A stretch of 64,000 nucleotides of DNA from Flavobacteriales bacterium (GCA_028110365.1 JAOGVT010000004.1:4926-68925), one strand, 5' to 3'; numbered from the stretch's first letter, positions 7,172 through 38,591 are shown. Numbers and translations: made by a program. The notes: generated by a model not told the origin, from the letters alone.

Positions 7172-8242
7172 ATGAAAAGTCTCCACATTATTGTTTCATC
7201 TTTTTTACTAATAATAATTTCTTTAACAGTTATTTCACACATATCTAACAAATTTAATCCAGAACATAATTTTAAAACCACTTTAACTATGAAAAACAAC
7301 AATTTATTTTTAAAAGACCATACAGAATTATTAAATATTCAAAATCAAGGAAATATTACCGTAGCTCAAATTAGTTATGATACAGCTGTTTTAGATAGTA
7401 TTATTAGTCTTCATGAAGCATTTGATGAAAACTTAATTATTGTCAAAGAATTAGAAGAAAGTGAACGTGTAAATACGATTGAACTTGAAAATTTAAGTGA
7501 GAGTTACATATTCATACTTGATGGAGACATATTAAAGGGTGCTAAGCAAAATAGAGTAGTTAATACATCTGTTTTGGTTGCTCCAAAATCAAAAATAATT
7601 CTGCCTGTTAGCTGCGTTGAAGAGGGACGATGGGAATATAAAAGTTCAAGGTTTAAACCTTCAGATGAAATCGCCCATAGATCAATTAGATACTCTAAAG
7701 CAAACTATATTAGTGAATCCAAAAAGCTAAATAGAGTAGACTTTGTTGCAGACCAATCTACTGTTTGGAATAAAGTTGCATCTGTATCTGATTCATTAGA
7801 ATTTCACTCAAAGACCATGTCTCATTCAGATTTGTTTGAGAATTATAAAGAAGAACTAGAAGATATTTCAAAAAAATTTAAAATGCAGCCTAAAGCAAAT
7901 GGACTTTTAATTTTTGTCGGAAACCAGATGGTTGCATGTGATATTTTCAATAATAATAAAATTTACAGAGATTACTTTAATAAGATTATAAAAACTTCAG
8001 CAATTGATTCTAAAATTAAAAAAGATAATGATCATCTAATATCATTGGATAAAGCAATCATAATGCAGTCATTGAATGATATTTTCGATCAGTTTGAAAA
8101 GTCAAAAGAAAATGCAAGTTTCACTCCAGGTGTCTCGGAGGGAGTAGAAACAAGACTTAATCTAGATGACAATACCTTTTATGGACTTAGTCATAAAGGA
8201 GAGTCGGTTCATCAATCAATATTGTCATCTAGTTCTAAGTAA
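7172..8242 (+). CDS. membrane-anchored ARPP-1/DUF6569-like protein
   Basis: N-terminal TM helix, then ILDGDILKGAKQNRVVNTSVLVAPKSKIILPVSCVEEGRWEY, which matches the GAKQNR...CVE.GRW signature as I remember it. Confidence 0.5.
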   Translation: MKSLHIIVSSFLLIIISLTVISHISNKFNPEHNFKTTLTMKNNNLFLKDHTELLNIQNQGNITVAQISYDTAVLDSIISLHEAFDENLIIVKELEESERVNTIELENLSESYIFILDGDILKGAKQNRVVNTSVLVAPKSKIILPVSCVEEGRWEYKSSRFKPSDEIAHRSIRYSKANYISESKKLNRVDFVADQSTVWNKVASVSDSLEFHSKTMSHSDLFENYKEELEDISKKFKMQPKANGLLIFVGNQMVACDIFNNNKIYRDYFNKIIKTSAIDSKIKKDNDHLISLDKAIIMQSLNDIFDQFEKSKENASFTPGVSEGVETRLNLDDNTFYGLSHKGESVHQSILSSSSK

Positions 8243-8373
8243 TTATTTAAATGGTAAAATGTATGAAGCAATATCAAGATTATATAAATAATTTAATAAA
8301 CGAATATATACTTAAAAGTTATAAATATTTATGGCGGCAAAATAAATATCATGATCAAATTAATTGATGTTAA

Positions 8374-8748
8374 ATGGATAGGTACGTTTTAGAGTTTGAA
8401 AAGATAACAGATTTGATTAAATCTGTTGATTTTTACTGCGAGTTATATAGGTGTAATGAAGACCACTGGTTGAAAGTGAAGCTTAAGGGAAATGACCATA
8501 TTTTTTATCATATATATGAAAAGGGATTACTAGATTTTCTTTCAGGAAAAGTTAATATGGCGGGACTATTTAATAATTCTCCCGGAAGTGAGTTTTTTTT
8601 ATATGTTGAAAATAAAGGTGTTAAGGTTCGTGAAAAATTTTCTTTTGACTATAAAAATATTACTAGTTGGGATAAATTTTATACTGATTTCTATACAAAA
8701 GAGCTAGATGAATTTAATCAGTTTATTAAAGACATTAAGAACAGTTAA
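8374..8748 (+). CDS. hypothetical 124-aa protein
   Basis: ORF only; same strand as its neighbours. Confidence 0.4.
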   Translation: MDRYVLEFEKITDLIKSVDFYCELYRCNEDHWLKVKLKGNDHIFYHIYEKGLLDFLSGKVNMAGLFNNSPGSEFFLYVENKGVKVREKFSFDYKNITSWDKFYTDFYTKELDEFNQFIKDIKNS

Positions 8749-8791
8749 TTATAAATTACCCTATATTTGATAATATTTATAAAAATATTGT

Positions 8792-9187
8792 TTGGGTTTG
8801 TTTTCAATTTTCAAAAAATTTCAAAAAGTAAAAGTTGGATCTGTTTGGGCAGCGCCTAATTATATTTGGTTAAATAGTTTTGCTAAAAATAAAAAAGGAA
8901 TAGGTTATCATCCGGCTATCGTCGAAAGGTTGAAAACTGATCAAATCACTGCTATTCTTACCCCCGGCACAACAAAAGCATATAAAATTGGTAGTTGCGT
9001 CTTTACTACCAAAATTTCCCCTTTATATAATGTTAAATCTCATTTTCTTTTAAAGTTATCGATGCCTTATTTAATCGATGAATTACAAAATCATCAAAAT
9101 AATTGGAGTGGAGTTCAGTGTTTGTCTGAAAAACAAAAAAAAGAACTTCAACAGCAAATCACTTGGTGTAAAGGAACAAGAAATTAA
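8792..9187 (+). CDS. hypothetical 131-aa protein (weak PemK/MazF-like pattern)
   Basis: TTG start in the track. The pattern KVGSVWAA...YHPAIVERL...ITAILTPGTTK loosely resembles the MazF-fold motif order. It ends 8 nt before the next ORF. Confidence 0.3.
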   Translation: MGLFSIFKKFQKVKVGSVWAAPNYIWLNSFAKNKKGIGYHPAIVERLKTDQITAILTPGTTKAYKIGSCVFTTKISPLYNVKSHFLLKLSMPYLIDELQNHQNNWSGVQCLSEKQKKELQQQITWCKGTRN

Positions 9188-9195
9188 TCAGGACT

Positions 9196-10242
9196 ATGTT
9201 GATGAACCTAAATAAAATAAACAAAAACGAAATATGGCTTACTAAGAAGTCCTTTATCGATATTAATGGTAATGAGGTCAATAGTGAGCATGAGTTTATT
9301 ATTTTTATAGTTCTAGCACCTGAAAGTATAAACGATGAGGAATTCGTTCGTGTACAACCAATATCGAAACAAATAGAAAGTCGAACTGATGAAGATATAT
9401 TTATTGATGATGAGTCTATTTTAGGTTATCCGTTTATTATTGAGACATGGAATGAGCAACCTATTTTAACAAAACTACTTCATAAAAAACTTGGTTCCAT
9501 AAGTAATCTATCAGTCGATGTTATTGAGCCAAATGAGTTTTCTGAAAATCAACTATCATTCAGGAAAAGTGAAATTAAAAGAACTGCCTTTTTAAGACAA
9601 TCAGTACTTTCAAATATAGTTGACCCTTTAAATAGTTATAAACAAGTAGCGCAAGTTGCAAACTATGCTTCATGGACAAAGTCGCCAGTATTTGCCTATG
9701 CTGCTATTATTATAGGAGTTGTTTTTATTTTATGGCAACCACATAAATATTCAAATGAGGAGTTCTTGGCATTTTATCTCGAAAAAACACCAATGGAGTT
9801 AAGCTTTAATGCTCAAAATCAATTGGTTCGAGGAGATGGTATTAGTATTGAAGGATTTTCATTAACTGAAAGTGATATTATTCAATTAGCTTTAATAAAA
9901 TATAATGATGGAGACTATCTAGCTTCTTCAGAATTATTTTCACAAGTCCCTGATTTATTTAATCATAATATTGATATTTATTTTTATGCTGGATTATCAG
10001 ATTTATATGCAAATAACACAGCTAGAGCCATAATTTCATTTGAAAAACTTGCCCTTGAGAAAAGAGAGTTCACTAAAAAATCACGAATTTCAAATGATGA
10101 TGTTTTATATTTTCTAGCATTAGCATATGTTCAAAATGGTGCTATAAGCAATGCAAGATCGCTATTAAATAAAATAACTTCTAATAGTCCCGATTATCTT
10201 AAGGATAAGCCAAATATTCTAGGAAATTTACGTTGGTTTTAA
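9196..10242 (+). CDS. 348-aa protein: N-terminal PemK-like-looking domain, one TM helix, C-terminal TPR-like repeats
   Basis: NEIWLTKKSF...FVRVQPISKQ...LHKKLGSIS at the N-terminus, TM helix VFAYAAIIIGVVFILW, and a TPR-like tail (YFYAGLSDLYANNTARAI..LALAYVQNGAISNARSLL). Confidence 0.4.
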   Translation: MLMNLNKINKNEIWLTKKSFIDINGNEVNSEHEFIIFIVLAPESINDEEFVRVQPISKQIESRTDEDIFIDDESILGYPFIIETWNEQPILTKLLHKKLGSISNLSVDVIEPNEFSENQLSFRKSEIKRTAFLRQSVLSNIVDPLNSYKQVAQVANYASWTKSPVFAYAAIIIGVVFILWQPHKYSNEEFLAFYLEKTPMELSFNAQNQLVRGDGISIEGFSLTESDIIQLALIKYNDGDYLASSELFSQVPDLFNHNIDIYFYAGLSDLYANNTARAIISFEKLALEKREFTKKSRISNDDVLYFLALAYVQNGAISNARSLLNKITSNSPDYLKDKPNILGNLRWF

Positions 10243-10260
10243 AGTTTTTAAATTAAAAAT

Positions 10261-13227
10261 ATGTTTGCTCAACTAAGGTCTATTCTAAATTTCTTAATTC
10301 CAGCTACCTGTTTGGCTGCTTCAGTTTATATTTTTTTAAATCTCATTCTATTATATTGGTTTATAGTAGATCCTCAAAGTTATTGGGATATTTGTTCATT
10401 TACTTTTGTCATGGCTTTTGTCATGTCAATTATTTTACCAACGTTTGGTATTTATCTAGCATCACTTTCTAAGCTGGGTGAAGACTCAATATTTTATGGA
10501 ATTCCAATCGGGGTGTTTCTGTTTTCTTATGTTCTAATAAATATTCCTCCCACCATATTTTTTCCAAATTCAGCAAGAGAGATGTTTGAGTCTTTAGATA
10601 AGATAGAAGAGTATATTGATGAAGCTAATCATGAAAAATCCATTGATGCCCTAACGGAATTAAACAATAAATATACTAACTATCAAACAAGTAAAATTTG
10701 GTTTGTGAAAGATAAGTTTCTCAAATCAGAGGAAGGATTGCTTATTATAAAAAATAGGGAGTATCAAATTAAAAAATTATATGGGACTTTACTGATGCTT
10801 ACTGGCGATAAAACTATAGCTGAAGAGCCTTTGACTGAAGCTGTATTAATTGCCGAAAATTATTTTTACGATGATAAGAGAGATTTTTTAGCGTTAGCTT
10901 ATCAATCGCTTTCACAGTATTATAGAATGATTGGGGACATATATAAATCTGAAGAGATTTATAATAAAGTAAGGCCTATAGATGGGGATCAACATGATGT
11001 AATTGATATTGTACAAATGCTTGTAGATAGAACTTTATATTATTATCGATTTGGTGATACTCAAAGTGCATTGGATGTTTATAAAATAGCTTATGATATA
11101 TATGGTAAATCAGCTGAATCAAAGGAGAATTTTTTTTATAAAGAGTTTCTTTTAGGATATATAAAAGCACATCTTCAAAATAGAAGTTTAGATGCCTTAG
11201 GAGATTTATTTAATGAAATCGAAGATCTTGTTGGATCCGATAAAAAAAGTACTAATTACATAGATTTTATTTGTCATAAAGCAGAGTATGAAAGTTATTT
11301 AGGAAACCTTAATGTATCAGAGGAGTTATATAATAAAGTAATAGATAAGATTAGACCAAGTAGTAGCTTATTTAATTTTTTTAAATCAACTAAAACACCC
11401 CTTGAGCTAATTCCTAACCTTCGAAGCTATGCTAAATTTATTTTAAAAAAAGGCAAATTTAAAGAGGCTCAAAAACTCTATAATGAATTACTAGAAATGT
11501 ATTCTTTAATAGGAACTGCTTCCCCAGAATTTTTTTCGAATTTTATCAAAATACAACTAGGTCTTCACAATAAAAATACTGCAGTTAGACTATCGTTAAA
11601 AGGAGATTCATTATTTTTAAACACATCTGTACCTCAAATATTTAAAGTAGCCTCTATAAGAGAAAAAGAAAGTATCTCTAGAGCTTTGGAAAATTACTTT
11701 TTAACAACAAATTCAGTATACTTATTAACTGATCTAGATGAAAGATTAGGTTCTATTTATAACAATGTTTTGGCAACAAAAAGCATCTCTTTATTGTCCC
11801 AAAATTATATCGAAGAATTTCTGATTTCCAATGACGATAATACTTTATTATCTTCCTACAAATATTTAAAAAGAGAGAAGGAAAGATTAGATAATTCTCT
11901 TTTCTCAATGAATGATTTAAATATAGATTATCAAACCCAATTTGATAGGATTTCTTTCAAAGAAAAAGAATTGTATAATAAAATCAACAATATTGATGGG
12001 TTTTCACCATACGATTTAACAGCTGTTGATTGGGGAATGATACAATCAAATTTAAGTGAAAATGAACTTGCAATTGAATTTGTTGCTTTGCTCCGTGATC
12101 CTAATAATTCAGATTCACTGAGTTATTTTGCTTTAATCATTGACTCAAATTCTAAGTTCCCAAAAATTATTGAGCTATGTTCTCAAAAGGATATTAACCA
12201 GATACTAAACAGTAAAAATAATTTAATAGATAGGGTGAATTCTATCTATTCAGATGTTTCCAATTCAGATCTATATAATAAGATTTGGGCACCTTTAGAT
12301 TCATGTTTAAAAAATAAGAGTCATGTATATGTTTCATTAAGTGGTATTTTAAATTCTATATCAATTCCTGCGCTTACCATTGATGAGCCATATTCAGTAA
12401 AAGTTCTTAGTAGTACTCGTCAAATAATTGAAATTAAAAGTGCTAAGCATAATATAATTAAAAAGTCACTTGTGTTTGGGGGTGTAGACTTTGATTTATC
12501 TTTAGATGATTCATTAATGTCTAGAAGTCAAATAAATCATCAAGATAGATTCTTATATAGAAATATTGCAGATTTAAATTTTGAAAAATTACCTGGAACT
12601 ATTTCAGAAACTCAGTCCATTGAAAATCTATTGGATAATAATAATATCAATAAAATAATTAGAACTGGTGCATCAGCAAGTGAACTTTCATTTAGACACT
12701 TAGTAGAATCTGAAAAACCTAATCATATACATATAGCTTCACATGGATTTTATTTTCCCAAAAAAAGAAGTGTTGTAATGAAGAATAATATATTTAAAAT
12801 TCAAAATGATTATTCTGTTATTAATAATCCACTATTTAGATCTGGTTTATTATTTGCCGGGGCAAATAATAAAAATAAATCATCTCTTTCAAATGATGGT
12901 GTTTTAACTGCCAATGAAATTGCAACTTTTGATCTTTCTCAAGTCGACTTAGTAGTTCTTTCAGCATGTGAAACCGGGTTAGGAGATGTAATAGGAAATG
13001 AAGGTGTTTTTGGATTACAAAGGGCTTTTAAAATGGCTGGTGCCGATAAATTACTTATGAGTCTTTGGAAAGTTCCTGATAGAGAAACTTCAATTTTAAT
13101 GTCAGAATTTTATAAATACTTGTTTGATGGGTATAATGCTCATGCAGCTCTGAAAAAAGCTCAAAATAAGATGAGGGAAGATTATCCAGAGCCATTTAAT
13201 TGGGCTGGGTTCTTTGTGTTGGAGTAA
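10261..13227 (+). CDS. membrane-anchored TPR-CHAT (caspase-like) protease
   Basis: Three to four N-terminal TM helices and a long TPR-like middle. The C-terminus carries HIHIASHGFYF (His), LVVLSACETGLGD (Cys) and GLQRAFKMAGADKLLMSLWKVPD, typical of CHAT. Confidence 0.8.
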   Translation: MFAQLRSILNFLIPATCLAASVYIFLNLILLYWFIVDPQSYWDICSFTFVMAFVMSIILPTFGIYLASLSKLGEDSIFYGIPIGVFLFSYVLINIPPTIFFPNSAREMFESLDKIEEYIDEANHEKSIDALTELNNKYTNYQTSKIWFVKDKFLKSEEGLLIIKNREYQIKKLYGTLLMLTGDKTIAEEPLTEAVLIAENYFYDDKRDFLALAYQSLSQYYRMIGDIYKSEEIYNKVRPIDGDQHDVIDIVQMLVDRTLYYYRFGDTQSALDVYKIAYDIYGKSAESKENFFYKEFLLGYIKAHLQNRSLDALGDLFNEIEDLVGSDKKSTNYIDFICHKAEYESYLGNLNVSEELYNKVIDKIRPSSSLFNFFKSTKTPLELIPNLRSYAKFILKKGKFKEAQKLYNELLEMYSLIGTASPEFFSNFIKIQLGLHNKNTAVRLSLKGDSLFLNTSVPQIFKVASIREKESISRALENYFLTTNSVYLLTDLDERLGSIYNNVLATKSISLLSQNYIEEFLISNDDNTLLSSYKYLKREKERLDNSLFSMNDLNIDYQTQFDRISFKEKELYNKINNIDGFSPYDLTAVDWGMIQSNLSENELAIEFVALLRDPNNSDSLSYFALIIDSNSKFPKIIELCSQKDINQILNSKNNLIDRVNSIYSDVSNSDLYNKIWAPLDSCLKNKSHVYVSLSGILNSISIPALTIDEPYSVKVLSSTRQIIEIKSAKHNIIKKSLVFGGVDFDLSLDDSLMSRSQINHQDRFLYRNIADLNFEKLPGTISETQSIENLLDNNNINKIIRTGASASELSFRHLVESEKPNHIHIASHGFYFPKKRSVVMKNNIFKIQNDYSVINNPLFRSGLLFAGANNKNKSSLSNDGVLTANEIATFDLSQVDLVVLSACETGLGDVIGNEGVFGLQRAFKMAGADKLLMSLWKVPDRETSILMSEFYKYLFDGYNAHAALKKAQNKMREDYPEPFNWAGFFVLE

Positions 13228-13284
13228 TTATTATTTCTGACACAATAATTATATTTTTTATGTTAAAAAAAATAACTTTAGATA

Positions 13285-13554
13285 ATGTTTAGGCTTATTT
13301 ATATTCTTTTAACGCTTTTAGAAATACCATTTGTAATTCTAACTTGGTTGGATTATTATCTTAATTTATTGTGTAAAAATCTATCTAGAATATCATTCAT
13401 TTTTGCTCTTCCATCTATTGTAACTTGGCCTTTTAGTTTTATTAATGGGATGGTTTTATCTTCGATTATTTACATGAGGTATAATGTAATTGGTGAGAAA
13501 ATGTCTTTTGCAGAGGCTATAGAAAAAAACCTGAGTCGTTTCCCAAGTTTATAA
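13285..13554 (+). CDS. small polytopic membrane protein (89 aa)
   Basis: Hydrophobic segments LIYILLTLLEIPFVILTWL and FIFALPSIVTWPFSFINGMVLSSIIY. It starts 57 nt after the CHAT gene. Confidence 0.4.
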   Translation: MFRLIYILLTLLEIPFVILTWLDYYLNLLCKNLSRISFIFALPSIVTWPFSFINGMVLSSIIYMRYNVIGEKMSFAEAIEKNLSRFPSL

Positions 13555-13564
13555 TTTTTTCATG

Positions 13565-14386
13565 TCATAGCATATTTGCATACCATGAATAGATGTTTTT
13601 AATATCGTTATCAAAAATATTTTGATAGGGTTTTGATTGATTATTATATTTTAAACCAAATCTTGATACATCTATAATTTTTGATCCACCTAATTTATTT
13701 GAGTTACTAGTGTCAAATGTCATTAGTATTAGTGGCCTATTTAATTTCTCTGATAGCTCAAATAATATTTTCCATGAAGGATAATCACCAGATCTACTTC
13801 TAGTTCCTTTAAAAAATCTATTAGGATCATAGGTTTCTACACTATACGGTGGCTTATAAGTGCAAATTCTTTTTTCAATTATAGCTGAAATTTGTTTAGT
13901 GTCTTTATCAAGAGTAAATCCATCAATATTAACTCCCCAAGCCAAATTATTTGAAAATAAGTCATTGTCTATAATGCTATTTTGTATTCGACTTTTTGCA
14001 TTATACATTTGTTTTTTTTGAGTGAAACTTTGGTTAGTTCTCCACCAATCAAGAAATTCTATTTTATTAAAATCAGATTTTAGATGATATGTACATTTGT
14101 TTAATACAAGCTCAGCCTCATAAATTCTGTATCTAAAACTCTCTTCAGATACAATGATCACATAGTAAGGCATACTTAAGTTTTTACAGAACAAATACCT
14201 ACCTAGTTCTTCATTATAATTAAGGCTCTCAAAATCAATAAATTGAAAGCTTTTAACTTGATATGATTCTATACCACAATTTAAAGTATCACCCTCTTTT
14301 AAAACTCCTTGAAGATCGAAGATGTTTAATTTATTAAAAATTAAATTTGAAAAATTATGTATTCTTTCAGTATCTCTTCTTTGCAT
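13565..14386 (-). CDS. hypothetical 273-aa protein (possible D...E-x-K nuclease-like motif; weak)
   Basis: Last gene of the minus-strand cluster. GVNIDGF...AIIEKRI could be a PD-(D/E)XK core, but this is unverified. Confidence 0.3.
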   Translation of the reverse strand: MQRRDTERIHNFSNLIFNKLNIFDLQGVLKEGDTLNCGIESYQVKSFQFIDFESLNYNEELGRYLFCKNLSMPYYVIIVSEESFRYRIYEAELVLNKCTYHLKSDFNKIEFLDWWRTNQSFTQKKQMYNAKSRIQNSIIDNDLFSNNLAWGVNIDGFTLDKDTKQISAIIEKRICTYKPPYSVETYDPNRFFKGTRSRSGDYPSWKILFELSEKLNRPLILMTFDTSNSNKLGGSKIIDVSRFGLKYNNQSKPYQNIFDNDIKNIYSWYANML

Positions 14387-14432
14387 TAATCTAGCTTATA
14401 ATTAATTTAATGCAACAAATGTATTTTCTATT

Positions 14433-14451
14433 TATGCATTGAATCTGCATA
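14433..14451. repeat. inverted repeat TATGCA-N7-TGCATA (YAYGCA-N7-TGCRTR family)
   Basis: 6-bp arms with spacer ttgaatc (the 5266 copy has ttgaatt). It lies between the HIRAN gene stop (14478) and the 273-aa ORF start (14386). Confidence 0.6.
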
Positions 14452-14477
14452 TTACAATAGATTTTCATTTATTAGTT

Positions 14478-15632
14478 TTATGTATATAATCCAGAAATTA
14501 ATTTAAGAAATTCAATGTCTTTGCTTTGATCATGCTTTCTAGATATTAATATTTTCTTTGGAGAAGTATTGTTGAAGTAGATCCTACCTGATGGGTCTCC
14601 TGATCCACTTGAATCTTGTGTCATTTTATATCTACACTCATGATAATTTCTTGCTTTTTTTATTTTTTTCCTACCCTCTAGTAGTTCTTGATTCTTTTGA
14701 ATATTAATAATTGTTTTGAAGATTATTATCTTTTCTTTTTCATCACATTCACATGCAAATTTTATTGAGTCTCCAAGGAATTCTATATTATTACAAACCC
14801 CTTTAATTGTAGTTTCAAATTGTGAGACAATTTTCTTTTTTAATTTTTCTCGTTCTTTTTTAAATTCTCTTTCTATTACCTGTTTCTCATCTTTTAATAA
14901 CAGCGTTTCTTTTTTTATTTGATTGTCTTTCGATTTTAATGCACTATCATGTTCTTTAATAATACTGTCAAACTCCTCATCTCGATCATATATTCCGAAT
15001 TTGTTTTTTATGAGTTCATAGATTCTATCTGTACTATTGTACTTATCTTCAGAGAATTCAATTTTTATTAACCAATAATACTGTACACCGGAATTAGATG
15101 GCATTGTCGGAAATGAAACATCTAAAACTTTAACCTCAATATCTTCTAAATAATTTACTATGTCATCTTTAATTTTATCGTTTGAGTTTAAATATAAATA
15201 GTAATTATTATTAGATCTTTCAAAATGACAAACAATAGGCATCTCTTGATGGCTTATGTTGATAGATTCATCATGCTTTATAATAATTGATAAGCCAAAT
15301 ATCTTTCCATATAAATCTGTGTTTATTTTACATATTTTCGCTTTACAACTACATTTATTGTCTCTTAATTCTGGGGCTAATTTTTGAGCTATATTTTTTG
15401 GTATATATCCAAGTGATTTATCATTATTTCTTTTAACATGAATTGCATTTTTATCATGAATATTATTTTCTTCTATACTTAAATATACAGTTTCATTTAT
15501 CCTGCATAGTTTTATGTTATCACCTCTTCTATTATGTTGAGTTCCAATAATATTAATTGGAGTTGATACATAATTTGACTTATCTTCTTTATAAAAGTAT
15601 TTAGTAATCAGTCTATATATCTTTTTAAACAT
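14478..15632 (-). CDS. HIRAN-domain protein with coiled-coil middle and unknown C-terminal domain
   Basis: The block IIGTQHNRRGDNIKLCRINETVYLSIEENNIHDKNAIHVKRNNDKSLGYIPKNIAQKLAPEL fits the HIRAN pattern (G.q....g....L.re..N..D.nAi.V......lGyip...A..l). A K/E-rich coiled coil spans aa 225-265. The tail RIYFNNTSPKKILISRKHDQSKDIEF vaguely resembles RelE/Gp49. Confidence 0.55.
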   Translation of the reverse strand: MFKKIYRLITKYFYKEDKSNYVSTPINIIGTQHNRRGDNIKLCRINETVYLSIEENNIHDKNAIHVKRNNDKSLGYIPKNIAQKLAPELRDNKCSCKAKICKINTDLYGKIFGLSIIIKHDESINISHQEMPIVCHFERSNNNYYLYLNSNDKIKDDIVNYLEDIEVKVLDVSFPTMPSNSGVQYYWLIKIEFSEDKYNSTDRIYELIKNKFGIYDRDEEFDSIIKEHDSALKSKDNQIKKETLLLKDEKQVIEREFKKEREKLKKKIVSQFETTIKGVCNNIEFLGDSIKFACECDEKEKIIIFKTIINIQKNQELLEGRKKIKKARNYHECRYKMTQDSSGSGDPSGRIYFNNTSPKKILISRKHDQSKDIEFLKLISGLYT

Positions 15633-15651
15633 AATGCAGGGAATAAGATGA

Positions 15652-16386
15652 CTATAATGTACTTGTTTTCATTTGGTAATCACAATACTTACAAGTCTTT
15701 GAATGTTCTGGAATATGATCTTGATTGAGAAGTGAATGAATTTCATTAAGAGTACTTTCTACCCAATTATCATTTCCTATGTATGGAATTAAACTTATTT
15801 TAAAATCCATTTTTTTGTCAAAGCGGGGTTTGTTATTTATTCCATTACAGTAGACAAAATACCCAGTATCAGAAACTTTAAATCCATTACGACGAAGCAG
15901 ATGTTGGTAAAATTCCATTTGACGTTTATATCCAATTTGCCAGTCGGCATCTAGAGTAACCTCTCCTGCTTTTGAAGTCGATTTATAGTCAACTACAATA
16001 AGTTCATTATTATCAAGATTGATCCATAAATCATCAACTGCCCCAAATACATGAAATTTCAAAGATTCATGATTATATGAAACACCTTTGAAGTTGAAGC
16101 GCCATTCTTCTATTTTTTCATGTTTAAATGGCACAGCATTAATACCTATTTTTTTAATGTATGGGTGAGGCTTTTGAGTTTCTCGGTATTGGTCAAATTC
16201 GTTTTTCAGAAGGCTGTCAACTGCAGAATTAAGATTAAATGGGAACCCAGGAGGTTGTCCTATTCCTAATTTTCGATCTAGAAAAAAACAACGTTTACAA
16301 TTCAGGTAAAATTCAACTTTAGAACGGCTAATTTTAAAGTACTCAGGTCTATTAGGGTTATATTTCCCTCTATAAGTTTTAATCAT
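15652..16386 (-). CDS. Cas4-like PD-(D/E)XK nuclease with terminal Cys cluster
   Basis: N-terminus ISRSKVEFYLNCKRCFFL, core GAVDDLWI...LIVVDYKSTSK...YKRQMEFYQHLL, and C-terminal Cys residues in TCKYCDY. Confidence 0.6.
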   Translation of the reverse strand: MIKTYRGKYNPNRPEYFKISRSKVEFYLNCKRCFFLDRKLGIGQPPGFPFNLNSAVDSLLKNEFDQYRETQKPHPYIKKIGINAVPFKHEKIEEWRFNFKGVSYNHESLKFHVFGAVDDLWINLDNNELIVVDYKSTSKAGEVTLDADWQIGYKRQMEFYQHLLRRNGFKVSDTGYFVYCNGINNKPRFDKKMDFKISLIPYIGNDNWVESTLNEIHSLLNQDHIPEHSKTCKYCDYQMKTSTL

Positions 16387-16387
16387 A

Positions 16388-17134
16388 TTAATCTACTTGA
16401 ATCACTCCTTGAATGACCTTTCTTACATCAAATCCATTGAGTTTAAATTTAACTTGTTGTTCCTTCCAAGTCTCATTTTTCCGAATTTCTGGAACTAAGG
16501 TCATATCCATTTTAACATTGTCAAGACCAATAAAATATTCTACATTTTGTTTGGCTGTTCGGTCAATCAAAATTCCATTTTCAACAGGTTTTGCTGAAAC
16601 GATTTTAGAAAGAGCAACATCTAATGATTTTTTATTCCCAGAGAAAATAAGCCGCTTGTTAGTTAGGATAAAATGCCCAACATCAAGAGGCGTTACTCTT
16701 TTTTCCGATGCTGCTTCAAAATCTCCAAATCGATAAGAAACTCCTCTCATCACTCTTATGGAAAATCCACTATGACTTCCTTTTGTTTTAATGGTTTTCT
16801 CTTCACATATTTGAATACCAGGAATATCAAAGATTAGTTTTTCACCTTTCTTTAAAAATACATCTGTTGGAAAATGGTTGGCTAAATCTCCAGAAATAAA
16901 TTGCTCAATCAATTGGTTTCTATGGAATTCGATGGTCTCATCTGGAATACCGCTAAATAGTTTTTTACCGGAGCCAAAATTTCCAAATTTCTTATGAGGT
17001 TTTAGAACAATAAGTATGGCTAAAACTAAACCTATAAACATCGATAGGTTTTTTTTGTCTAAAAAAATATTAATTAAGGCCGAGCCTATAAAAAAGACAA
17101 CAATAACTAGAAAGGTGTTTTTTATAAAGTTCAT
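16388..17134 (-). CDS. two-TM protein with bPH/GRAM-like cytoplasmic domain
   Basis: TM helices FLVIVVFFIGSALINIFL and FIGLVLAILIVL. GHFILTNKRLIFSGNKKSLDVALSKIVS resembles the bacterial PH-like motif. Confidence 0.4.
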   Translation of the reverse strand: MNFIKNTFLVIVVFFIGSALINIFLDKKNLSMFIGLVLAILIVLKPHKKFGNFGSGKKLFSGIPDETIEFHRNQLIEQFISGDLANHFPTDVFLKKGEKLIFDIPGIQICEEKTIKTKGSHSGFSIRVMRGVSYRFGDFEAASEKRVTPLDVGHFILTNKRLIFSGNKKSLDVALSKIVSAKPVENGILIDRTAKQNVEYFIGLDNVKMDMTLVPEIRKNETWKEQQVKFKLNGFDVRKVIQGVIQVD

Positions 17135-17345
17135 TAAATATAGATTTGTTATATGCTAATATAACTAAAAAGTAAAAATATATGTCTCATAACCTACCAA
17201 ATGGTATAATGGGATTATAAAATTTTTTAAGTTATAGTAAACCCATACAGGTAGTATAATTTCGCTTCAAATAGTATAAATTAACATAATATCTTTGTGT
17301 AAAATTATACCATTAAGCATAATTTACTTATTTTTGAAATGCATT

Positions 17346-17494
17346 AAGAGTTACTATAAAGTATGCCAACCGATCTTTAACCAAGGCGCGGTGGAAATTA
17401 TGTGAGACAACCGTCTAAAAATTAAATTGGTTATCCATAATTTATATTGACGCAATGTTTTTGACATAAACTGTCACAAACGTTTTATTTATTT
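17346..17494 (+). ncRNA. structured RNA-like element A1 with terminator-like hairpin
   Basis: Conserved 5' block AAGAGTTACT..AGTATGCCAACCGATC..CGGTGGA. Predicted stems are CAACCG/CGGTGG, UCUU/AAGG, AAUUAUG/CAUAAUU and AGAC/GUCU. This is followed by GTTTTTGACA-taaac-TGTCACAAAC and a T-rich run (17457-17494). Confidence 0.4.
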
Positions 17495-17509
17495 GTACAA
17501 CAATACATC

Positions 17510-17631
17510 AAGAGTTACTCTGAGTATGCCAACCGATCCTTTCCGGGCACGGTGGATTGAATGTGAAGCAATCTGCTTAAAAACAAAGGAATTCCTTTCA
17601 CATTGTTCTTGGTGTTTAAATTTATTTAAAC
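17510..17631 (+). ncRNA. structured RNA-like element A2 (paralogue of A1); abuts the ORF start
   Basis: It has the same 5' block, with predicted stems UCC/GGG, AAUGUGA/UCACAUU and AAGC/GCUU plus an A-rich tail. A U-rich tract follows, then the ATG at 17632. Confidence 0.4.
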
Positions 17632-18147
17632 ATGAATGAGATGAAATCAGAAATCAAAGAAATTAGAACCATTAGTGGTGAACTTATCGATTTTGTATGG
17701 GGCCTAGATGATCATACCCCAATCGAAATTTTTTACCGTGATGGAAGTCGTGAACTCAATTGTACTCCGTTTAAGTTAAAAGAGCCTGCTCGGTTTTATA
17801 CAAATCGTGCAGCTGTTGTTCATAGAGCATGGCGAGAAAAAATGGATAAAAAGAGAGAATTTATGGATCGATATGAATCGGTTTATTTTCAGAAGTTCCC
17901 TCGCAAGTATTATGAGCGTAAAATTGCTTTAACCATGCAAGAACGCAATCAAGAAAACAAACGATTTGCTTTAAATATAGAAAGTCTAAAGGAGAATTCC
18001 GATGTAATACGATTTGCTATGCCAAGTATGTGTGCAGCTAGCTTCAGTGTAGAAAAAGAATGGCTTCAAAAAAAATCAGGATGGAACTATAGAGTAAAAA
18101 TTAATGCTGAAATTTTAAAAGATGGAAAAATCCAAAAGTCAATTTAA
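17632..18147 (+). CDS. hypothetical 171-aa protein (phage-like); N-terminal 107 codons are duplicated at 34.9 kb
   Basis: ORF with no motif recognised. Its 5' part is inside the direct repeat. Confidence 0.5.
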   Translation: MNEMKSEIKEIRTISGELIDFVWGLDDHTPIEIFYRDGSRELNCTPFKLKEPARFYTNRAAVVHRAWREKMDKKREFMDRYESVYFQKFPRKYYERKIALTMQERNQENKRFALNIESLKENSDVIRFAMPSMCAASFSVEKEWLQKKSGWNYRVKINAEILKDGKIQKSI

Positions 18148-18418
18148 AGTAGGGGATAAGGTGCTTTGTATGAACGATGCATTTAGTGTTAAAGACCCGC
18201 AAGTGATGTTTATGAATTTTCCTAAAAAGGGTCGTGAATATACGATTCGTGGTTTTTGTGGTCTTGGAATATCTATGTGGTTAGAAGAAATAGTAAACCA
18301 ACCCTTACCTGGACGAAATGAAATATGGTTTTACAATTGGCATTTCAGGAAAAAAGAAAATTTGCTGATTAAAATTAAAGCATCTAAAACGAAAGTCAAA
18401 GAATTAGAATTAGTCTAG
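18122..18418 (+). CDS. small 98-aa protein, paralogue of the next ORF
   Basis: Shares FKVGDKVLCMNDAF..FPKKGREYTIR..WLEEI with FKKGDKVLCLNSDF..FPSGAKVYIVR..YLEHI in the next ORF. Confidence 0.5.
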   Translation: MEKSKSQFKVGDKVLCMNDAFSVKDPQVMFMNFPKKGREYTIRGFCGLGISMWLEEIVNQPLPGRNEIWFYNWHFRKKENLLIKIKASKTKVKELELV

Positions 18419-18733
18419 ATGTCATTTATTAAAAACCTTAAAATTAAAATTATGAAATTTAAAAAAGGTGATAAGGTATTGTGCTTGAATTCAGATTTCG
18501 AGAAAAAAGTACCAAATGCAAAATTTCCTTCAGGAGCTAAAGTTTATATTGTAAGGTCATATTCAGAAGAATGGGACACGTTATACTTGGAGCATATTTA
18601 TAACCCAAAATTATATACAAAAAAAGGGATGTGTGAAATTGGTTTTGCTTCCTGGCGCTTTGCTTTATTAAAAGACGATATTAATTATCAAAAATTTGAC
18701 AATCCAGGTAAATGGAGAAAAATTAGATTTTAA
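18419..18733 (+). CDS. small 104-aa protein, paralogue of the previous ORF
   Basis: See the previous entry. It starts immediately after the preceding stop. Confidence 0.5.
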   Translation: MSFIKNLKIKIMKFKKGDKVLCLNSDFEKKVPNAKFPSGAKVYIVRSYSEEWDTLYLEHIYNPKLYTKKGMCEIGFASWRFALLKDDINYQKFDNPGKWRKIRF

Positions 18734-18839
18734 GTTAAATACTAAGCTATGAGTTTTACAGAGATTTCTAATCTTACTGTTGGTGTTCTTTTTCTATTTT
18801 GGTTTATAAGACGAATGTTTAATGATTTAAAATAATTTC

Positions 18840-19634
18840 ATGAAAGAACTCTCTTTAATAGAACTTGTGGAGTCTGATAATTTTTCTTCAATTTCAAGTG
18901 AGTATATGTGTTTTCAAAAATCAGTCAAAGGTGTTTTCCCAAGCAATGTAATAGCATCTAGATTATTTAGAGAATTAATAGATCATTACAGCTTGTCAAA
19001 ATTAACTGATAATCAATTAATTGAAGGGTTAAACCTATTTGTTAAAACTCCAAATTTAACTAGTGATAGACAAAAAATACTTTTAAAGGAATTTAAATAT
19101 AGACGTATAGATTTTAGTGATATTTTCAATGAAGGTAGATTAATGCATTACAAAGTTCGACTTGAAGGAAAGAATATTGTAATTGCTGGAGATGTATCGG
19201 CTATTTATAAAGCTAAGATTTATGATCAAGCTGCACGAATGAATAATGATATAGATAAAGCTATCCATTATTCAACTAAGGCAATAGAATTAGATTCAAC
19301 TAAATTTGCTTATTGGTTTTTTAGAGGTATTTTACATACAAGAATACCCCCATCACAAAGGTGGTATTACTATGAAGATAACCCTAATGAGTTTAAAATT
19401 AGAATGCAAAATGCGTTAGATGATTTTGATAGATCTATTAGTCTTGTAGACTCTAAAAAGTTTCATGCAATAGCTCATGCAAGAAAAGCCGAAGTCCTCC
19501 ATAGATTGGAAAAAAAACAAAAAACTATTGAGGAAATTACAAAATCATTAAAAGCTGATTACTCAAATAAAGGCATCGACTTTATTTTAAATAAATTGAA
19601 AATTTCAAGACAAAAAATATTGATTGTTAAATAA
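18840..19634 (+). CDS. hypothetical 264-aa protein with TPR-like C-terminal half
   Basis: The segment AIHYSTKAIELDSTKFAYWFFRGILH resembles a TPR. Confidence 0.4.
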   Translation: MKELSLIELVESDNFSSISSEYMCFQKSVKGVFPSNVIASRLFRELIDHYSLSKLTDNQLIEGLNLFVKTPNLTSDRQKILLKEFKYRRIDFSDIFNEGRLMHYKVRLEGKNIVIAGDVSAIYKAKIYDQAARMNNDIDKAIHYSTKAIELDSTKFAYWFFRGILHTRIPPSQRWYYYEDNPNEFKIRMQNALDDFDRSISLVDSKKFHAIAHARKAEVLHRLEKKQKTIEEITKSLKADYSNKGIDFILNKLKISRQKILIVK

Positions 19635-21953: not shown

Positions 21954-23198
21954 TTATCGATTTAGAGTAAAGTAAATTGCAATTGCTATATTTTTTGCCA
22001 TCATTGGTGGAACTGCATTGCCGATCATTTTATAATTATAACCCATTCTTTCTTTAAAAATAAAATCCTCAGGAAAAGATTGAAGAGATGCTGCTTCTCT
22101 AACTGTAATTGATCTTGATTGTTTTTCATCGGGATGAATAAACATCAACCCATCTTTGTATAGATGTGCTACAATAGTAGGGGAGGGCTTATTCCAATCA
22201 AGACTTCTGTATTTTCCGTGTGAAGATTTTTTCCCTACTAAATCATTATAGAATTTAATTTTTACATCAGAATTCCAACTATTCATATTGTTTTTTAGCC
22301 AATTTGAAAAGACTTTTATATCACGCTGATTTTGATATCTTGGAATTAGGTCATCGCTAAGATCAATATTCTCTATAGCCTTATATGAAGTCTTTCGACC
22401 ATATATTTTTTCAGTTTTATTTGAGGGCTTAAATTTTGGTAAATGAGATATAGCGTGGTGAACAGTGGAGTGCTTTTTTACAAATTGTTTTTTAATTTCA
22501 TTGTAAATTGAGTGTAGCTTTAGATCACTAGAATTCGCTGTTTTAATTCCAATAATAATAACTCTATTTCTTTTTTGAGGAACTCCTAAATCAGCTGCAG
22601 AGAATACAGCATTTTTAAGATCTTTAGAAGGAGGAATTTCGTAGCCTATTTTTTTAAATGCTTCATAAATTCGTTCTGTTACAGGTTTTCCTCCAGGCTG
22701 GGCACTTAACATTCCGGGTACATTTTCAAAGACAAATACAGTTGGTCTAAATTCATCAACTACTTTAACAAAACTCTCAAACAAGTAGTTTCTGTAGTCA
22801 TCTTTCATGGAGTTTTTATCCTGAGCTCTTCCTGCAATCGAATAGGCTTGACATGGAGGACCTCCAATGATTAGATCAACCTTTTTATTGCCAACTAAAG
22901 AGCGAAGACCACCATTTATTATTTGCTTGTGATTTGTTGCTCCATAATTTTTTAAAGTTCCCTTTCCCCAATTTCCATTAATTAATTCCTTTGTCTTTTG
23001 AATGTCAAAATGAATAACTCGTTTAAGAGAATCTTCATTGGAGTGTTTCCAACGATCTGTTAGACGATGACGAAGCGTTCTAACCATTGGTATTTCCCAT
23101 TCAACATGAGCCAACCCTTCATACTTATTAGAAGATAAAAACCCTTCGGAGAGACCTCCGCAACCTGCAAATAAATCAATGAAAGTCAATTTCTTCAT
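21954..23198 (-). CDS. DNA (cytosine-5)-methyltransferase
   Basis: Motifs FIDLFAGCGGLSEGF (I), GGPPCQAYS (IV), ENVPGM (VI), QKRNRVIIIG (VIII) and GNAVPP (X). Confidence 0.9.
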   Translation of the reverse strand: MKKLTFIDLFAGCGGLSEGFLSSNKYEGLAHVEWEIPMVRTLRHRLTDRWKHSNEDSLKRVIHFDIQKTKELINGNWGKGTLKNYGATNHKQIINGGLRSLVGNKKVDLIIGGPPCQAYSIAGRAQDKNSMKDDYRNYLFESFVKVVDEFRPTVFVFENVPGMLSAQPGGKPVTERIYEAFKKIGYEIPPSKDLKNAVFSAADLGVPQKRNRVIIIGIKTANSSDLKLHSIYNEIKKQFVKKHSTVHHAISHLPKFKPSNKTEKIYGRKTSYKAIENIDLSDDLIPRYQNQRDIKVFSNWLKNNMNSWNSDVKIKFYNDLVGKKSSHGKYRSLDWNKPSPTIVAHLYKDGLMFIHPDEKQSRSITVREAASLQSFPEDFIFKERMGYNYKMIGNAVPPMMAKNIAIAIYFTLNR

Positions 23199-37074: not shown

Positions 37075-38274
37075 TTACCTGTAAATACTCTTTAAGGCTT
37101 GCATTTCATCTTGCACCCTTGTGTTTACTAATTTGGCATAATGCTGAGTATGTTTTACACTTTTGTGACCTAGCATTTTACTAACCACCTCAAGTGATAC
37201 TCCCTTGGCAAGGGTAATTGTTGTTGCAAAGGTATGACGTGCTATATGGAAGGTTAGTGTTTTTTTAATTCCTGCGGCATTAGCAATTGACTTAAGATGA
37301 CGATTAACTTTCTGATTACTGAGCATCGGTATAACCATTTGCCCTAGTTCTACTCGCGGGTCATCTTTGTACTTCTTGATGATTCTTTTTGCCGGCTCTA
37401 GTAGCATTATACTAGACCTAACTTTTGATTTTTGCCGGTATATTTTAATCCACAGTTCTCCATTGTCAAAATAGATATTGTCTTGTTTCATTCGCTTAAG
37501 GTCTACATATGCAAGACCTGTGTAACATGCTATAATAAAAGCATCTCTGTTTTCACTGAGTCTTTTATTTAGTTTCAGGTTTTGTATTCTGTAGATCTCA
37601 TCATCAGTAAGAAACTCCCTTTCTACTATTTCTAGTTTAAACCTGTATTCTGCAAATGGGTTAATTAATATATATCCCTTGGCTAGGGCTATTTTTATTA
37701 TTTTTTTAAACGACTGCATGTACTTCACAGCAGTGTTGTTTGAGAGACCATTTATTCTAAGGAAGTGATCTAGCTCTATGATAAAATCATAATTTATTTT
37801 CCTTACGTCATAATCTTCACAATTGTATTTGTGCTTTACAAATTTGAGTACATATCTAAAACAACTATCAAATTTCTCCATCGATCGTGGGGCTCTTTGA
37901 TTTACTTGAACAAGCTCTTTAAACTGCTTTTGGTGGTAATTAAATAATTCTACTACACCTATGTAATTTGTATCTATTCCTCTGTGGTAATTAAATATAT
38001 CATGAACACTGTATCCTGCTTTGTACTTTAAACACTGTAGCTCACTATCGTATAGACTGTGTTCAATGCTTTTCATATAGTCGTAGAGTCGTTTGAGTTC
38101 TAGATAAGAGGTTTTAGGATACTGCTTTTTGTCATCCCACTTTTCCATCTCAATCCATTTAAATATGCTAAAGTCCTTTCTTTTGCCATTCATTTGTAAA
38201 CGGCAATAGATAGGAACCTTCCCTTGATTGTTTTTCTTTCTTCTTATGAAGTAGTACACTTTTAGGTAGCCCAT
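37075..38274 (-). CDS. tyrosine recombinase / integrase (Bacteroidetes type); track ORF extends to 38427, but the ATG at 38274 fits the family N-terminus
   Basis: N-terminal arm-binding-type start MGYLKVYYFIRRKKNNQGKVPIYCRLQMNGKR. Catalytic HIARHTFATT and LGHKSVKHTQHYAK. Confidence 0.85.
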   Translation of the reverse strand: MGYLKVYYFIRRKKNNQGKVPIYCRLQMNGKRKDFSIFKWIEMEKWDDKKQYPKTSYLELKRLYDYMKSIEHSLYDSELQCLKYKAGYSVHDIFNYHRGIDTNYIGVVELFNYHQKQFKELVQVNQRAPRSMEKFDSCFRYVLKFVKHKYNCEDYDVRKINYDFIIELDHFLRINGLSNNTAVKYMQSFKKIIKIALAKGYILINPFAEYRFKLEIVEREFLTDDEIYRIQNLKLNKRLSENRDAFIIACYTGLAYVDLKRMKQDNIYFDNGELWIKIYRQKSKVRSSIMLLEPAKRIIKKYKDDPRVELGQMVIPMLSNQKVNRHLKSIANAAGIKKTLTFHIARHTFATTITLAKGVSLEVVSKMLGHKSVKHTQHYAKLVNTRVQDEMQALKSIYR

Positions 38275-38506
38275 AGCATTATGTTTAGCATAAATTTGAG
38301 AACTAATAACCAGGTGAGGTGTCAAGTTTCTATACTTGACACGAAAAAAGTGTTGAGATGAATTGGGATTTTGTCTAAAAAAAAGACAAACACCAGTTAT
38401 ACACTGAGATATGCAAAAAAAGGCCATTTTTGAAAAATTGCCTTTTAGTGAAACGTCTGAAAATCAATGATTTGAAAAAATTGATACCCTTTGAAAAGGG
38501 CTTTTG

Positions 38507-38591
38507 CAGAGAGGAAGGGATTCGAACCCCCGATACATTGCTGTATACACGCTTTCCAAGCGTGCGCCTTAAGCCACTCGGCCACCTCTCT
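38507..38591 (-). tRNA. tRNA-Ser (anticodon GGA), 85 nt, long variable arm
   Basis: Hand-folded. Acceptor AGAGAGG/CCTCTCT, D arm GCC..GGC with GAGTGGCTTAA loop, anticodon stem CACGC/GCGTG with loop TTGGAAA, variable arm ATACA-gcaa-TGTAT, and T loop TTCGAAT. No CCA is encoded. Confidence 0.85.

Follow-up and report, generated by a model that had tools for sequence, protein, structure and literature searches.

A tightly packed HIRAN and nuclease locus in a Flavobacteriales defence island is probably a stack of separately inherited cassettes

Do four tightly packed genes within a bacterial defence island make up one defence system? The question is raised by a locus in a Flavobacteriales metagenome-assembled genome (JAOGVT010000004.1), of which we analyzed a stretch of 64,000 nucleotides (nt). 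We call this stretch the window, and all positions are counted along it. The locus consists of four open reading frames (ORFs) on the minus strand, termed g1 to g4, with g1 transcribed first (Table 1). The gaps between them measure 1, 19, and 91 nt, and the genes converge with plus-strand genes for TPR and TPR-CHAT proteins at 9196-13227. NCBI annotates the four products as a hypothetical protein, a PD-(D/E)XK nuclease, a HIRAN domain-containing protein, and a hypothetical protein. A preliminary description of this DNA, in which the ORFs, the gaps, and the convergence on the CHAT cluster had been given correctly, took the genes for an operon whose HIRAN, nuclease, and membrane components might work as one system. 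We suggest instead that the locus probably consists of at least three defence-island cassettes, stacked head to tail and inherited independently, rather than being one four-gene system. This reading is carried by the domain identities, by the separate distributions of the families, and by breakpoints at gene boundaries; the biochemical activities and the defence phenotype are what we infer within it.

Table 1. Features of the locus and of the island border (residues refer to the encoded proteins)
Feature	Position	Strand	Basis or remark
g1, 248-aa membrane protein	16388-17134	-	ORF listing
g1, two N-terminal hydrophobic helices, about residues 1-48	16991-17134	-	hydropathy
g1, conserved cytoplasmic core, about residues 60-248	16391-16957	-	weak PH/GRAM/GLUE-like signals
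g2, 244-aa Cas4/RecB-like PD-(D/E)XK nuclease	15652-16386	-	starts 1 nt past the g1 stop
g3, 384 aa, four parts	14478-15632	-	profile search and alignment A5; full-length family about 370-400 aa
g3, HIRAN domain, residues 26-106	15315-15557	-	Pfam HIRAN
g3, middle alpha/beta domain, about residues 134-212	14997-15233	-	alignment A5; motif G.QY.WYI (G182, Y185, W187)
g3, K/E-rich coiled coil, about residues 217-280	14793-14984	-	modelled as long helices; of variable length among family members
g3, C-terminal module, residues 281-384	14481-14792	-	motif W.E.HFNTG..DGRLYFK....VLVSFK..Q..DI
Candidate g4-specific promoter, TACATTTG	14416-14423	-	fits TAnnTTTG; lies in the 91-nt g3-g4 spacer, about 37 nt before the g4 ATG
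g4, 273 aa, Bacteroidota family of 64 clusters	13565-14386	-	ORF and family search
Terminator-like hairpin and T-run	13517-13550	-	15 nt downstream of the g4 stop; stem 13550-13527, 9 pairs, then TTTTTCTATAG
450-aa tyrosine recombinase	37075-38427	-	PDB matches of XerC/XerA/IntI type down to 2e-9
tRNA-Ser(GGA)	38506-38591	-	directly adjoins the recombinase, where G+C rises from ~0.28 to ~0.38

Gene combinations and breakpoints

The four genes occur together in the window only, and its sister contigs as well as more than 90 related loci carry other combinations. Three contigs (L005, L006, and L030) have g1-g2-g3 followed by unrelated genes, without g4. Four others (L001-L004) have g3-g4 without g1 and g2, and here a divergent gene for 114 amino acids (aa) and a DUF2779 protein precede. 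In L031, a g1 of 97% identity is followed by unrelated genes, with neither g2 nor g3. Among 80 metagenome loci with relatives of g1 that were examined for neighbours, g2 and g3 are limited to the lineage of the window, and only in this lineage does a HIRAN protein stand beside a member of the g4 family. Joint inheritance of the four families in other genomes is thus not what we find, and the proposal of one HIRAN, nuclease, and membrane system was not borne out.

The breaks could be placed with blastn. Homology between the window and L031 stops at the single base that separates g1 from g2 (16387), and the DNA common to the window and L033, L034, and L021 is the g1 ORF only. Homology to L001 starts at 15601, 31 nt inside g3, and homology to L005 stops at 14495, 17 nt before the g3 stop. 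Within the block shared with L005, synonymous divergence is 0.16 for g1, 0.02 for g2, and 0.18 for g3. This unequal divergence points to recombination at the scale of single genes, and by these values there seems to have been a recent exchange of g2 between lineages in which its flanks took no part.

The same three genes could nevertheless be a lineage-specific multigene system, with or without g4, in which HIRAN would sense DNA ends, the Cas4-like nuclease would degrade or process the invading DNA, and the PH-like protein would serve as anchor or effector. Several points favour such a system and weigh against independent cassettes. The adjacency of g1, g2, and g3, with gaps of 1 and 19 nt that suggest translational coupling, is kept in two sampled sub-lineages, that of the window and that of L005 with L006 and L030, which fits a working trio. 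Moreover, the slot behind g1 mostly holds a DNA-end exonuclease, DEDDh-type elsewhere and Cas4-like here, suggesting a link between g1 and the exonuclease. In Gram-positive bacteria, DEDD nucleases adjoin genes for HIRAN proteins and HipA toxins (PMC11706625); the adjacency of nuclease, HIRAN, and toxin is by this analogy a recurring theme and may be functional. Activation of a toxin after HIRAN has sensed phage DNA ends was proposed by Gerdes et al. (PMC8262856). We also note that only two contexts for the g3 family were obtained outside the window lineage, one of them a contig of 1.4 kb, and that g2 without g3 is represented by a single relative of 43% identity, which makes it the weakest part of our survey. 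Finally, components are swapped among defence systems, and genes with separate distributions could therefore still cooperate here.

On the other side, the window and L005 are 97% identical across the g1-g2-g3 block and therefore count as one evolutionary observation. The HIRAN gene is found without g1 and g2 in L001-L004 and in the distant locus L111, and g1 lacks g2 and g3 in about 19 of 20 contexts. Neither g1 nor g3 lies near the plasmid homologue of g2, and the g4 family keeps different partners altogether. In our view a dedicated trio, though the main rival, is unlikely, and we hold to a stack of independent cassettes. The four-gene "system" should accordingly stay out of defence-system catalogues. 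Here tight packing within a defence island misleads, and it took no more than a cheap comparison with sister strains to settle the question.

The membrane protein and the nuclease that follows it

Hydrophobic windows (Kyte-Doolittle value >1.6) are confined to the first ~48 residues of g1, which fits the two transmembrane helices that had been assigned to it. The proposal of a bacterial PH/GRAM-like domain fared less well. Its motif, GHFILTNKRLIFSG, is present in g1, but all profile matches are sub-threshold. They comprise Vps36-GLUE in 36 of 42 family members, CheF in 30, GRAM in 13, and bPH_3 in 5, with a best E value of about 3e-4, and a profile search of the PDB gave Vps36 GLUE as the lone match (E = 0.53). 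We treat the PH/GRAM-like assignment as a weak lead from sub-threshold similarities.

The g1 family comprises 54 clusters, and relatives are encoded on 187 metagenome stretches. Grouped by hand, with relatives at >=65% identity, the contexts number about 20. An exonuclease of the RNase_T-type DEDDh class lies immediately downstream in ~10 of them, often followed by a GIY-YIG nuclease; the class was assigned with Pfam RNase_T (1.5e-14) and the PADLOC models DEDDh (5.5e-27) and PDC-S48 (4e-16). In ~7 there is no co-directional downstream gene. McrC lies directly upstream with a gap of 8-10 nt in 4 (L021, L034, L035, and L040, a group that overlaps the others), and g2-g3 is found downstream in 1, the window lineage. 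The relatives paired with the exonuclease are those of L013, L037, L038, L040, L043, L046-L049, L051, and L079-L081, and after this pair there is often, besides the GIY-YIG nuclease, a 362-aa protein of unknown function. In the four loci with McrC, g1 is the last gene of an McrB-McrC operon. PADLOC has neither the g1-DEDDh nor the McrBC-g1 arrangement as a system that includes g1. In marine Flavobacteriia, g1 is met alone, at the end of an McrB-McrC operon, or before a DEDDh exonuclease, sometimes with the GIY-YIG nuclease.

The ratio of nonsynonymous to synonymous substitution (dN/dS) of g1 is 0.10-0.17. In L031, L033, L034, and L021 DNA homology to other contigs is confined to the g1 ORF, and the contig of L032 ends inside g1. 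Judged from these comparisons, g1 behaves as a discrete, separately shuffled single-ORF cassette. No shared recombination motif was found at the cassette junctions, and a scan of viral contigs for the family gave one distant match only. A conserved non-coding element of ~60 nt (TCATAARGA...CCC.TGTCATTTCAGT...) follows right after the g1 stop in several unrelated contexts (L031 2051-2120; L033 731-800; L022 8757-8830; L035 2744-2748). The window does not have it. Because the g2 ATG takes its place, the g2-g3 block looks like a derived insertion.

We suggest that g1 would be anchored in the membrane, carry a PH/GRAM-like domain on the cytoplasmic side, and move as a single ORF, and that it may cooperate with the end-processing exonuclease that happens to follow it. 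The Cas4/RecB-like g2 fills this slot in the present lineage only. A membrane PH-like protein that recurs beside DEDDh or Cas4-like exonucleases and at the ends of McrBC operons offers a testable hypothesis.

The nuclease g2 had been described as Cas4-style. Its PD-(D/E)XK nature holds. The RecB-type set of catalytic motifs is complete (D118-D119, D133-Y-K135, Q156xxxY160), the sequences CKRCFFL, DYKSTSK, and CKYCDY are all contained in the protein, and Pfam returns PDDEXK_1 at 1.2e-14, above its cut-off. Similarity to Cas4 is also evident: Cas_Cas4 (PF01930) is matched at 2.2e-05 (a marginal pass, with a score of 25.1 against a cut-off of 22.7), several PADLOC Cas4 models are matched down to 1.7e-11, and the Cas4-like phage families matched include phrog_31195 (2.9e-13) and phrog_1706. 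However, TIGR00372 reaches 35 bits against an equivalog cut-off of 65. The canonical iron-sulfur pattern of Cas4 has one N-terminal and three C-terminal cysteines, whereas the cysteines of g2 (30, 33, (180), 232, and 235) are arranged as CxxC...CxxC. No cas domains are present among the ORFs at 5-37 kb, and the window holds no CRISPR-like repeat array. Thus g2 fails three of four features of Cas4 membership, namely equivalog score, association with cas genes or CRISPR, and cysteine pattern, and by its sequence it is Cas4-like and not Cas4. The nearest annotated relative, the one of 43% identity mentioned above, is found in an unrelated context on a Flagellatimonas plasmid, with no relatives of g1, g3, or g4 nearby. 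It was the one plasmid match in a tblastn search of plasmids and phages, and the viral-contig scan for g2 returned nothing.

The HIRAN protein and the gene behind it

In our opinion the HIRAN family is the most interesting part of the locus. The N-terminal HIRAN domain of g3 (PF08797) reaches 51.1 bits, with a Pfam gathering threshold of 24.7 (E = 1.2e-13), it is matched in 29 of 29 family members (best 3e-19), and the family profile matches the HIRAN structures of HLTF at 5e-13. Hence neither the HIRAN nor the nuclease call of the preliminary description collapsed under profile search. Residue D60 of g3, invariant in alignment A5, aligns with D94 of HLTF ("..NPYDKNAI.."), and N57, N62, and A63 lie within the same NxxDxNAI motif. 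In HLTF, D94 recognizes the 3′-OH of DNA, and roles of Y72 and Y93 have likewise been covered (PMC5773155). Prokaryotic HIRAN domains are still called uncharacterised (PMC11090510).

A word-indexed search gave three close relatives of g3, and 136 matches at E<=1e-3 came from an exhaustive search with HMMER. Among these 136, about 30 are proteins of 370-400 aa which align over residues ~20-377 with 20-32% identity. Invariant in alignment A5 are G30, D60, A63, G75, R350, Y352, K366, Q369, and D372. A distant member in L111, a contig of 47.7 kb, is monocistronic among unrelated genes, and we judge the genome to be Planctomycetes-like from the PSCyt, PSD1, and DUF1501 neighbours. The AlphaFold2 (AF2) model of g3, built from 4 near-identical sequences, has a predicted local distance difference test score (pLDDT) of 46, too low for the fold to be judged from it, and only the middle domain reaches 60-85. 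In this model the middle domain has the topology beta-beta-alpha-beta-beta-alpha; it has no Pfam match and no family assignment. The coiled-coil stretch matches generic coiled-coil families only (GrpE, bZIP, ZapB, and MotB).

The C-terminal module, earlier thought to be vaguely like RelE/Gp49, has no match in Pfam, neither in the window protein nor in any family member, and none in a profile search of the PDB. What remains of the likeness is TIGR02683, a RelE/ParE toxin family, which 4 of the 29 members match below threshold (best E = 0.0069) and which is the sole non-coiled-coil family matched by several members; the window protein itself gives no match. By these similarities the module is a candidate, and unproven, RelE/ParE-like effector. 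A local search of the fetched DNA with hidden Markov models found no stand-alone relatives of the C-terminal module or of the middle domain. The viral-contig scan for g3 returned nothing, and tblastn against plasmids and phages found only the HIRAN domain of gp253 from Bacillus phage G. In the literature we found no described HIRAN-RelE fusion and nothing useful on the PADLOC candidate PDC-M03. Text matches to "HIRAN" in Millman et al. 2022 are the author name Hirano. With a dN/dS of ~0.4 the gene evolves fast; the value for the neighbouring CHAT protein is 0.35.

In our main reading g3 forms a self-contained unit of one gene. The HIRAN domain with its retained 3′-OH-binding aspartate would sense free DNA 3′ ends, such as intermediates of phage replication or degradation, the coiled coil would serve oligomerisation, and the C-terminal module, possibly RelE/ParE-like, would arrest growth. 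This mechanism is borrowed from the hypothesis for HipL and HipN. A further and admittedly doubtful proposal is that the g3 family may be a new single-polypeptide abortive-infection or toxin system, in which the signal would pass from HIRAN through the middle domain and the coiled coil to a fused RelE/ParE-like toxin. Its place behind a second candidate module, a membrane PH-like protein with a DNA-end exonuclease, could feed it with 3′-ended substrates. If true, the g3 family would extend to another effector the principle that HIRAN senses DNA ends and a toxin fires, which has been proposed only for kinases of the HipA type.

The last gene, g4, encodes a protein of two similar alpha/beta halves, each with a D-x15-E arrangement (D24..E40 and D155..E171-K172-R173). 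The "D...ExK" core that had been considered for it is partly confirmed: D155 and E171-K172-R173 are invariant in the family (alignment A2), but they do not form a canonical ExK. The AF2 model has a pLDDT of 93. Its fold has no significant global match in the PDB or BFVD, and partial matches of low probability are to Hjc, the nuclease domain of SPARDA, phage PD-(D/E)XK endonucleases, and the bunyaviral L endonuclease. Going by the model, g4 is probably a PD-(D/E)XK-like endonuclease. The dN/dS of 0.10 in comparison with L001 indicates strong purifying selection.

The spacing of 1 and 19 nt makes it very probable that g1, g2, and g3 are co-transcribed, and in this inferred sense they may be called an operon. 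The four-gene operon of the preliminary description is however called into question by the promoter-like box in the g3-g4 spacer. The consensus of the -7 promoter element in Bacteroidota is TAnnTTTG, and TACATTTG is one of two minus-strand matches to it within 13200-17700. A scan for sigma-70 promoters proved uninformative in this AT-rich Bacteroidota DNA, with 36 found against 29 expected.

Elsewhere g4 keeps other company. In 6 of 9 distinct contexts a 233-aa protein is encoded within 6 kb of the g4 relative (L007, L009, L011, L024, L026, and L028), and McrBC lies directly upstream in 3. The relatives in Flavobacterium antarcticum, Myroides, and Sphingobacterium paucimobilis are convergent with a gene for this protein of 233-234 aa, which is 81-83% identical across these genera and 72-83% identical across Flavobacterium, Myroides, Sphingobacterium, and Crocinitomix. 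Other arrangements are MTase-McrB-McrC-g4 (L024) and McrBC-g4 (L023 and L025), where MTase stands for the 233-aa protein. We assign this partner as a methyltransferase because it matches phrog_757, a DNA methyltransferase family, at 1e-61 and because its full-length homologues in 882 phage records are DNA or cytosine methyltransferases where annotated. Comparison with Dcm methylases by hhalign was uninformative, as only the PPC of motif IV was aligned (E = 0.03, probability 1.6%) from shallow alignments.

No homologue of the 233-aa methyltransferase was found in the window by tblastn. In Myroides, its gene is co-operonic with genes for a helix-turn-helix protein and a 414-aa Dcm. Because that Dcm is 61% identical to the Dcm encoded at 21954-23198 of the window, the latter is, from sequence, a candidate source of protection. 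The viral-contig scan for g4 returned nothing, and tblastn against plasmids and phages found no match. We suggest that g4 would be the nuclease-like half of a small restriction-modification-like pair with promoter-like and terminator-like signals of its own, that its methyltransferase partner would have been lost here, and that it presumably leans on other methylases of the island or acts with a different specificity. On this view a widespread cytosine methyltransferase of phage type would have in the g4 family a nuclease-like partner of novel fold, which in some loci is embedded together with McrBC.

Could g3 and g4 form a two-gene unit, a HIRAN sensor or toxin joined to a nuclease? In favour of this, they are neighbours, equally spaced, both in the window and in four contigs from a sub-lineage with 81-91% identity. 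Yet L005 has g3 without g4 and breaks off at the 3′ end of g3, all other relatives of g4 lack HIRAN and are paired with the methyltransferase or McrBC or both, the spacer holds the promoter-like box, and the dN/dS values differ four-fold (0.40 for g3 and 0.10 for g4). Such a unit is very unlikely, and the two genes are better regarded as separate cassettes.

The island and the likeness to known systems

The defence-type setting of the locus is as it had been described. The island is of low G+C content and its genes include a WYL/WCX regulator, ARPP-1, TPR-CHAT, an ADP-ribosylglycohydrolase, two Dcm-type methylases, and McrB/McrC, as well as Dnd-like modules. The G+C content of the window is ~0.28 as far as ~36 kb and ~0.38 past that. 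Because the tyrosine recombinase adjoins the tRNA-Ser gene where the G+C content shifts, the whole defence region of 1-38.5 kb looks like an integrative island.

We also considered that the genes could be a housekeeping DNA repair or a prophage recombination or replication module with no part in defence. Eukaryotic HIRAN acts in fork reversal (PMC5773155), and Cas4-like nucleases do occur in phages, as the phage families matched by g2 illustrate. But within 5-37 kb no ORF near g1-g4 encodes a phage structural or replication function, searches of phage genomes and viral contigs gave next to no relatives, the genes are patchy and strain-variable in a low-GC island full of restriction and abortive-infection modules, and g3 evolves fast. 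We give this explanation hardly any weight and prefer defence-island cassettes.

Further features of the island may be mentioned. Beside the conserved ARPP-1 gene, the window (7172-13227) and L001 have the TPR and TPR-CHAT pair, whereas in L005 (9221-12802) a 195-aa gene and a DUF2130 protein occupy the same slot; cassettes have been swapped at this point of the island, too. Two riboswitch aptamers for S-adenosylmethionine (SAM), of type SAM-I/IV (RF01725), lie in tandem on the plus strand of the 497-nt spacer that precedes g1 (17336-17432 and 17500-17594). Both have a score of 43.7 bits, the gathering score being 41.1, and both are kept in the sister contigs L005 and L031. They face divergent plus-strand genes at 17632-19634 coding for proteins of 171, 98, 104, and 264 aa, for which we found no clear assignment in Pfam or PADLOC; the 264-aa protein has sub-threshold TPR-type matches only. 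The 98- and 104-aa proteins (18122-18733), downstream of the riboswitch-preceded 171-aa gene, have the motifs "F K.GDKVLC.N..F" and "W.F" in common and look like paralogues by sequence. A SAM riboswitch before non-metabolic genes of a defence island is unusual. We may speculate that the genes could thereby respond when SAM runs low, as it might through a phage SAM lyase. Outside the island, in the part of higher G+C content, there is a tandem duplication of 423 nt (41156-42017; 2 copies, 90% identical).

No named defence system fits any of g1-g4, and it is the single families that have to be compared. With Cas4 and the AddB-RecB-type nucleases g2 shares D..D.K, QxxxY, the terminal cysteines, and the Pfam and PADLOC Cas4 matches; it departs from Cas4 in its TIGR00372 score, in its cysteine arrangement, and in the lack of cas genes and a CRISPR array in the window. 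In the tail of the g3 family, the GR.YF ... K..Q..DI motif gives the four members their sub-threshold matches to RelE/ParE toxins (TIGR02683, "upstrm_HI1419"; the superfamily includes PF05973). The predicted order of a helix, 3-4 strands, and a helix is compatible with this fold in a model of pLDDT 46. Against the likeness, no score reaches threshold and there is no separate antitoxin gene.

The g4 family is comparable to type II restriction-modification pairs and to methyltransferase-associated McrBC, since its members are convergent to or just downstream of a cytosine methyltransferase and often beside McrBC. A widespread and unexpected association of McrBC with methyltransferases was reported by Bell et al. 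2024 (PMC11090510). Conservation is also typical of restriction-modification, with 72-83% identity for the methyltransferase and 46-58% for the putative nuclease. The window differs in that the methyltransferase partner is absent, and the fold of g4 is without significant match to solved restriction enzymes.

The closest parallel to g3 is found in HipL and HipN, toxin modules with a HIRAN-containing kinase of the HipA family, for which it was proposed that phage DNA ends are sensed and the toxin is then triggered (PMC8262856). Here as there a bacterial HIRAN domain shares its polypeptide or operon with a domain of toxin type that arrests growth, which for g3 is a candidate, and HipL is monocistronic like the g3 family. 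In contrast, g3 contains neither a kinase nor a HipS-like domain, and its N-terminal HIRAN is followed by a novel middle domain, the coiled coil, and a different C-terminal module. The PADLOC candidate PDC-M03B appears to be a HIRAN protein of the HipL/HipN kind, and residues ~20-106 of g3 match positions ~125-215 only of this model of ~250; g1, g2, and g4 do not match the PDC-M03 models.

In summary, what is left from the supposed system are three uncharacterised, separately mobile families, g1, g3, and g4, each of which leads to a hypothesis that can be tested. These families are versions of known themes, namely a toxin module linked to HIRAN, a gene accessory to nuclease systems, and a restriction-modification-like pair.

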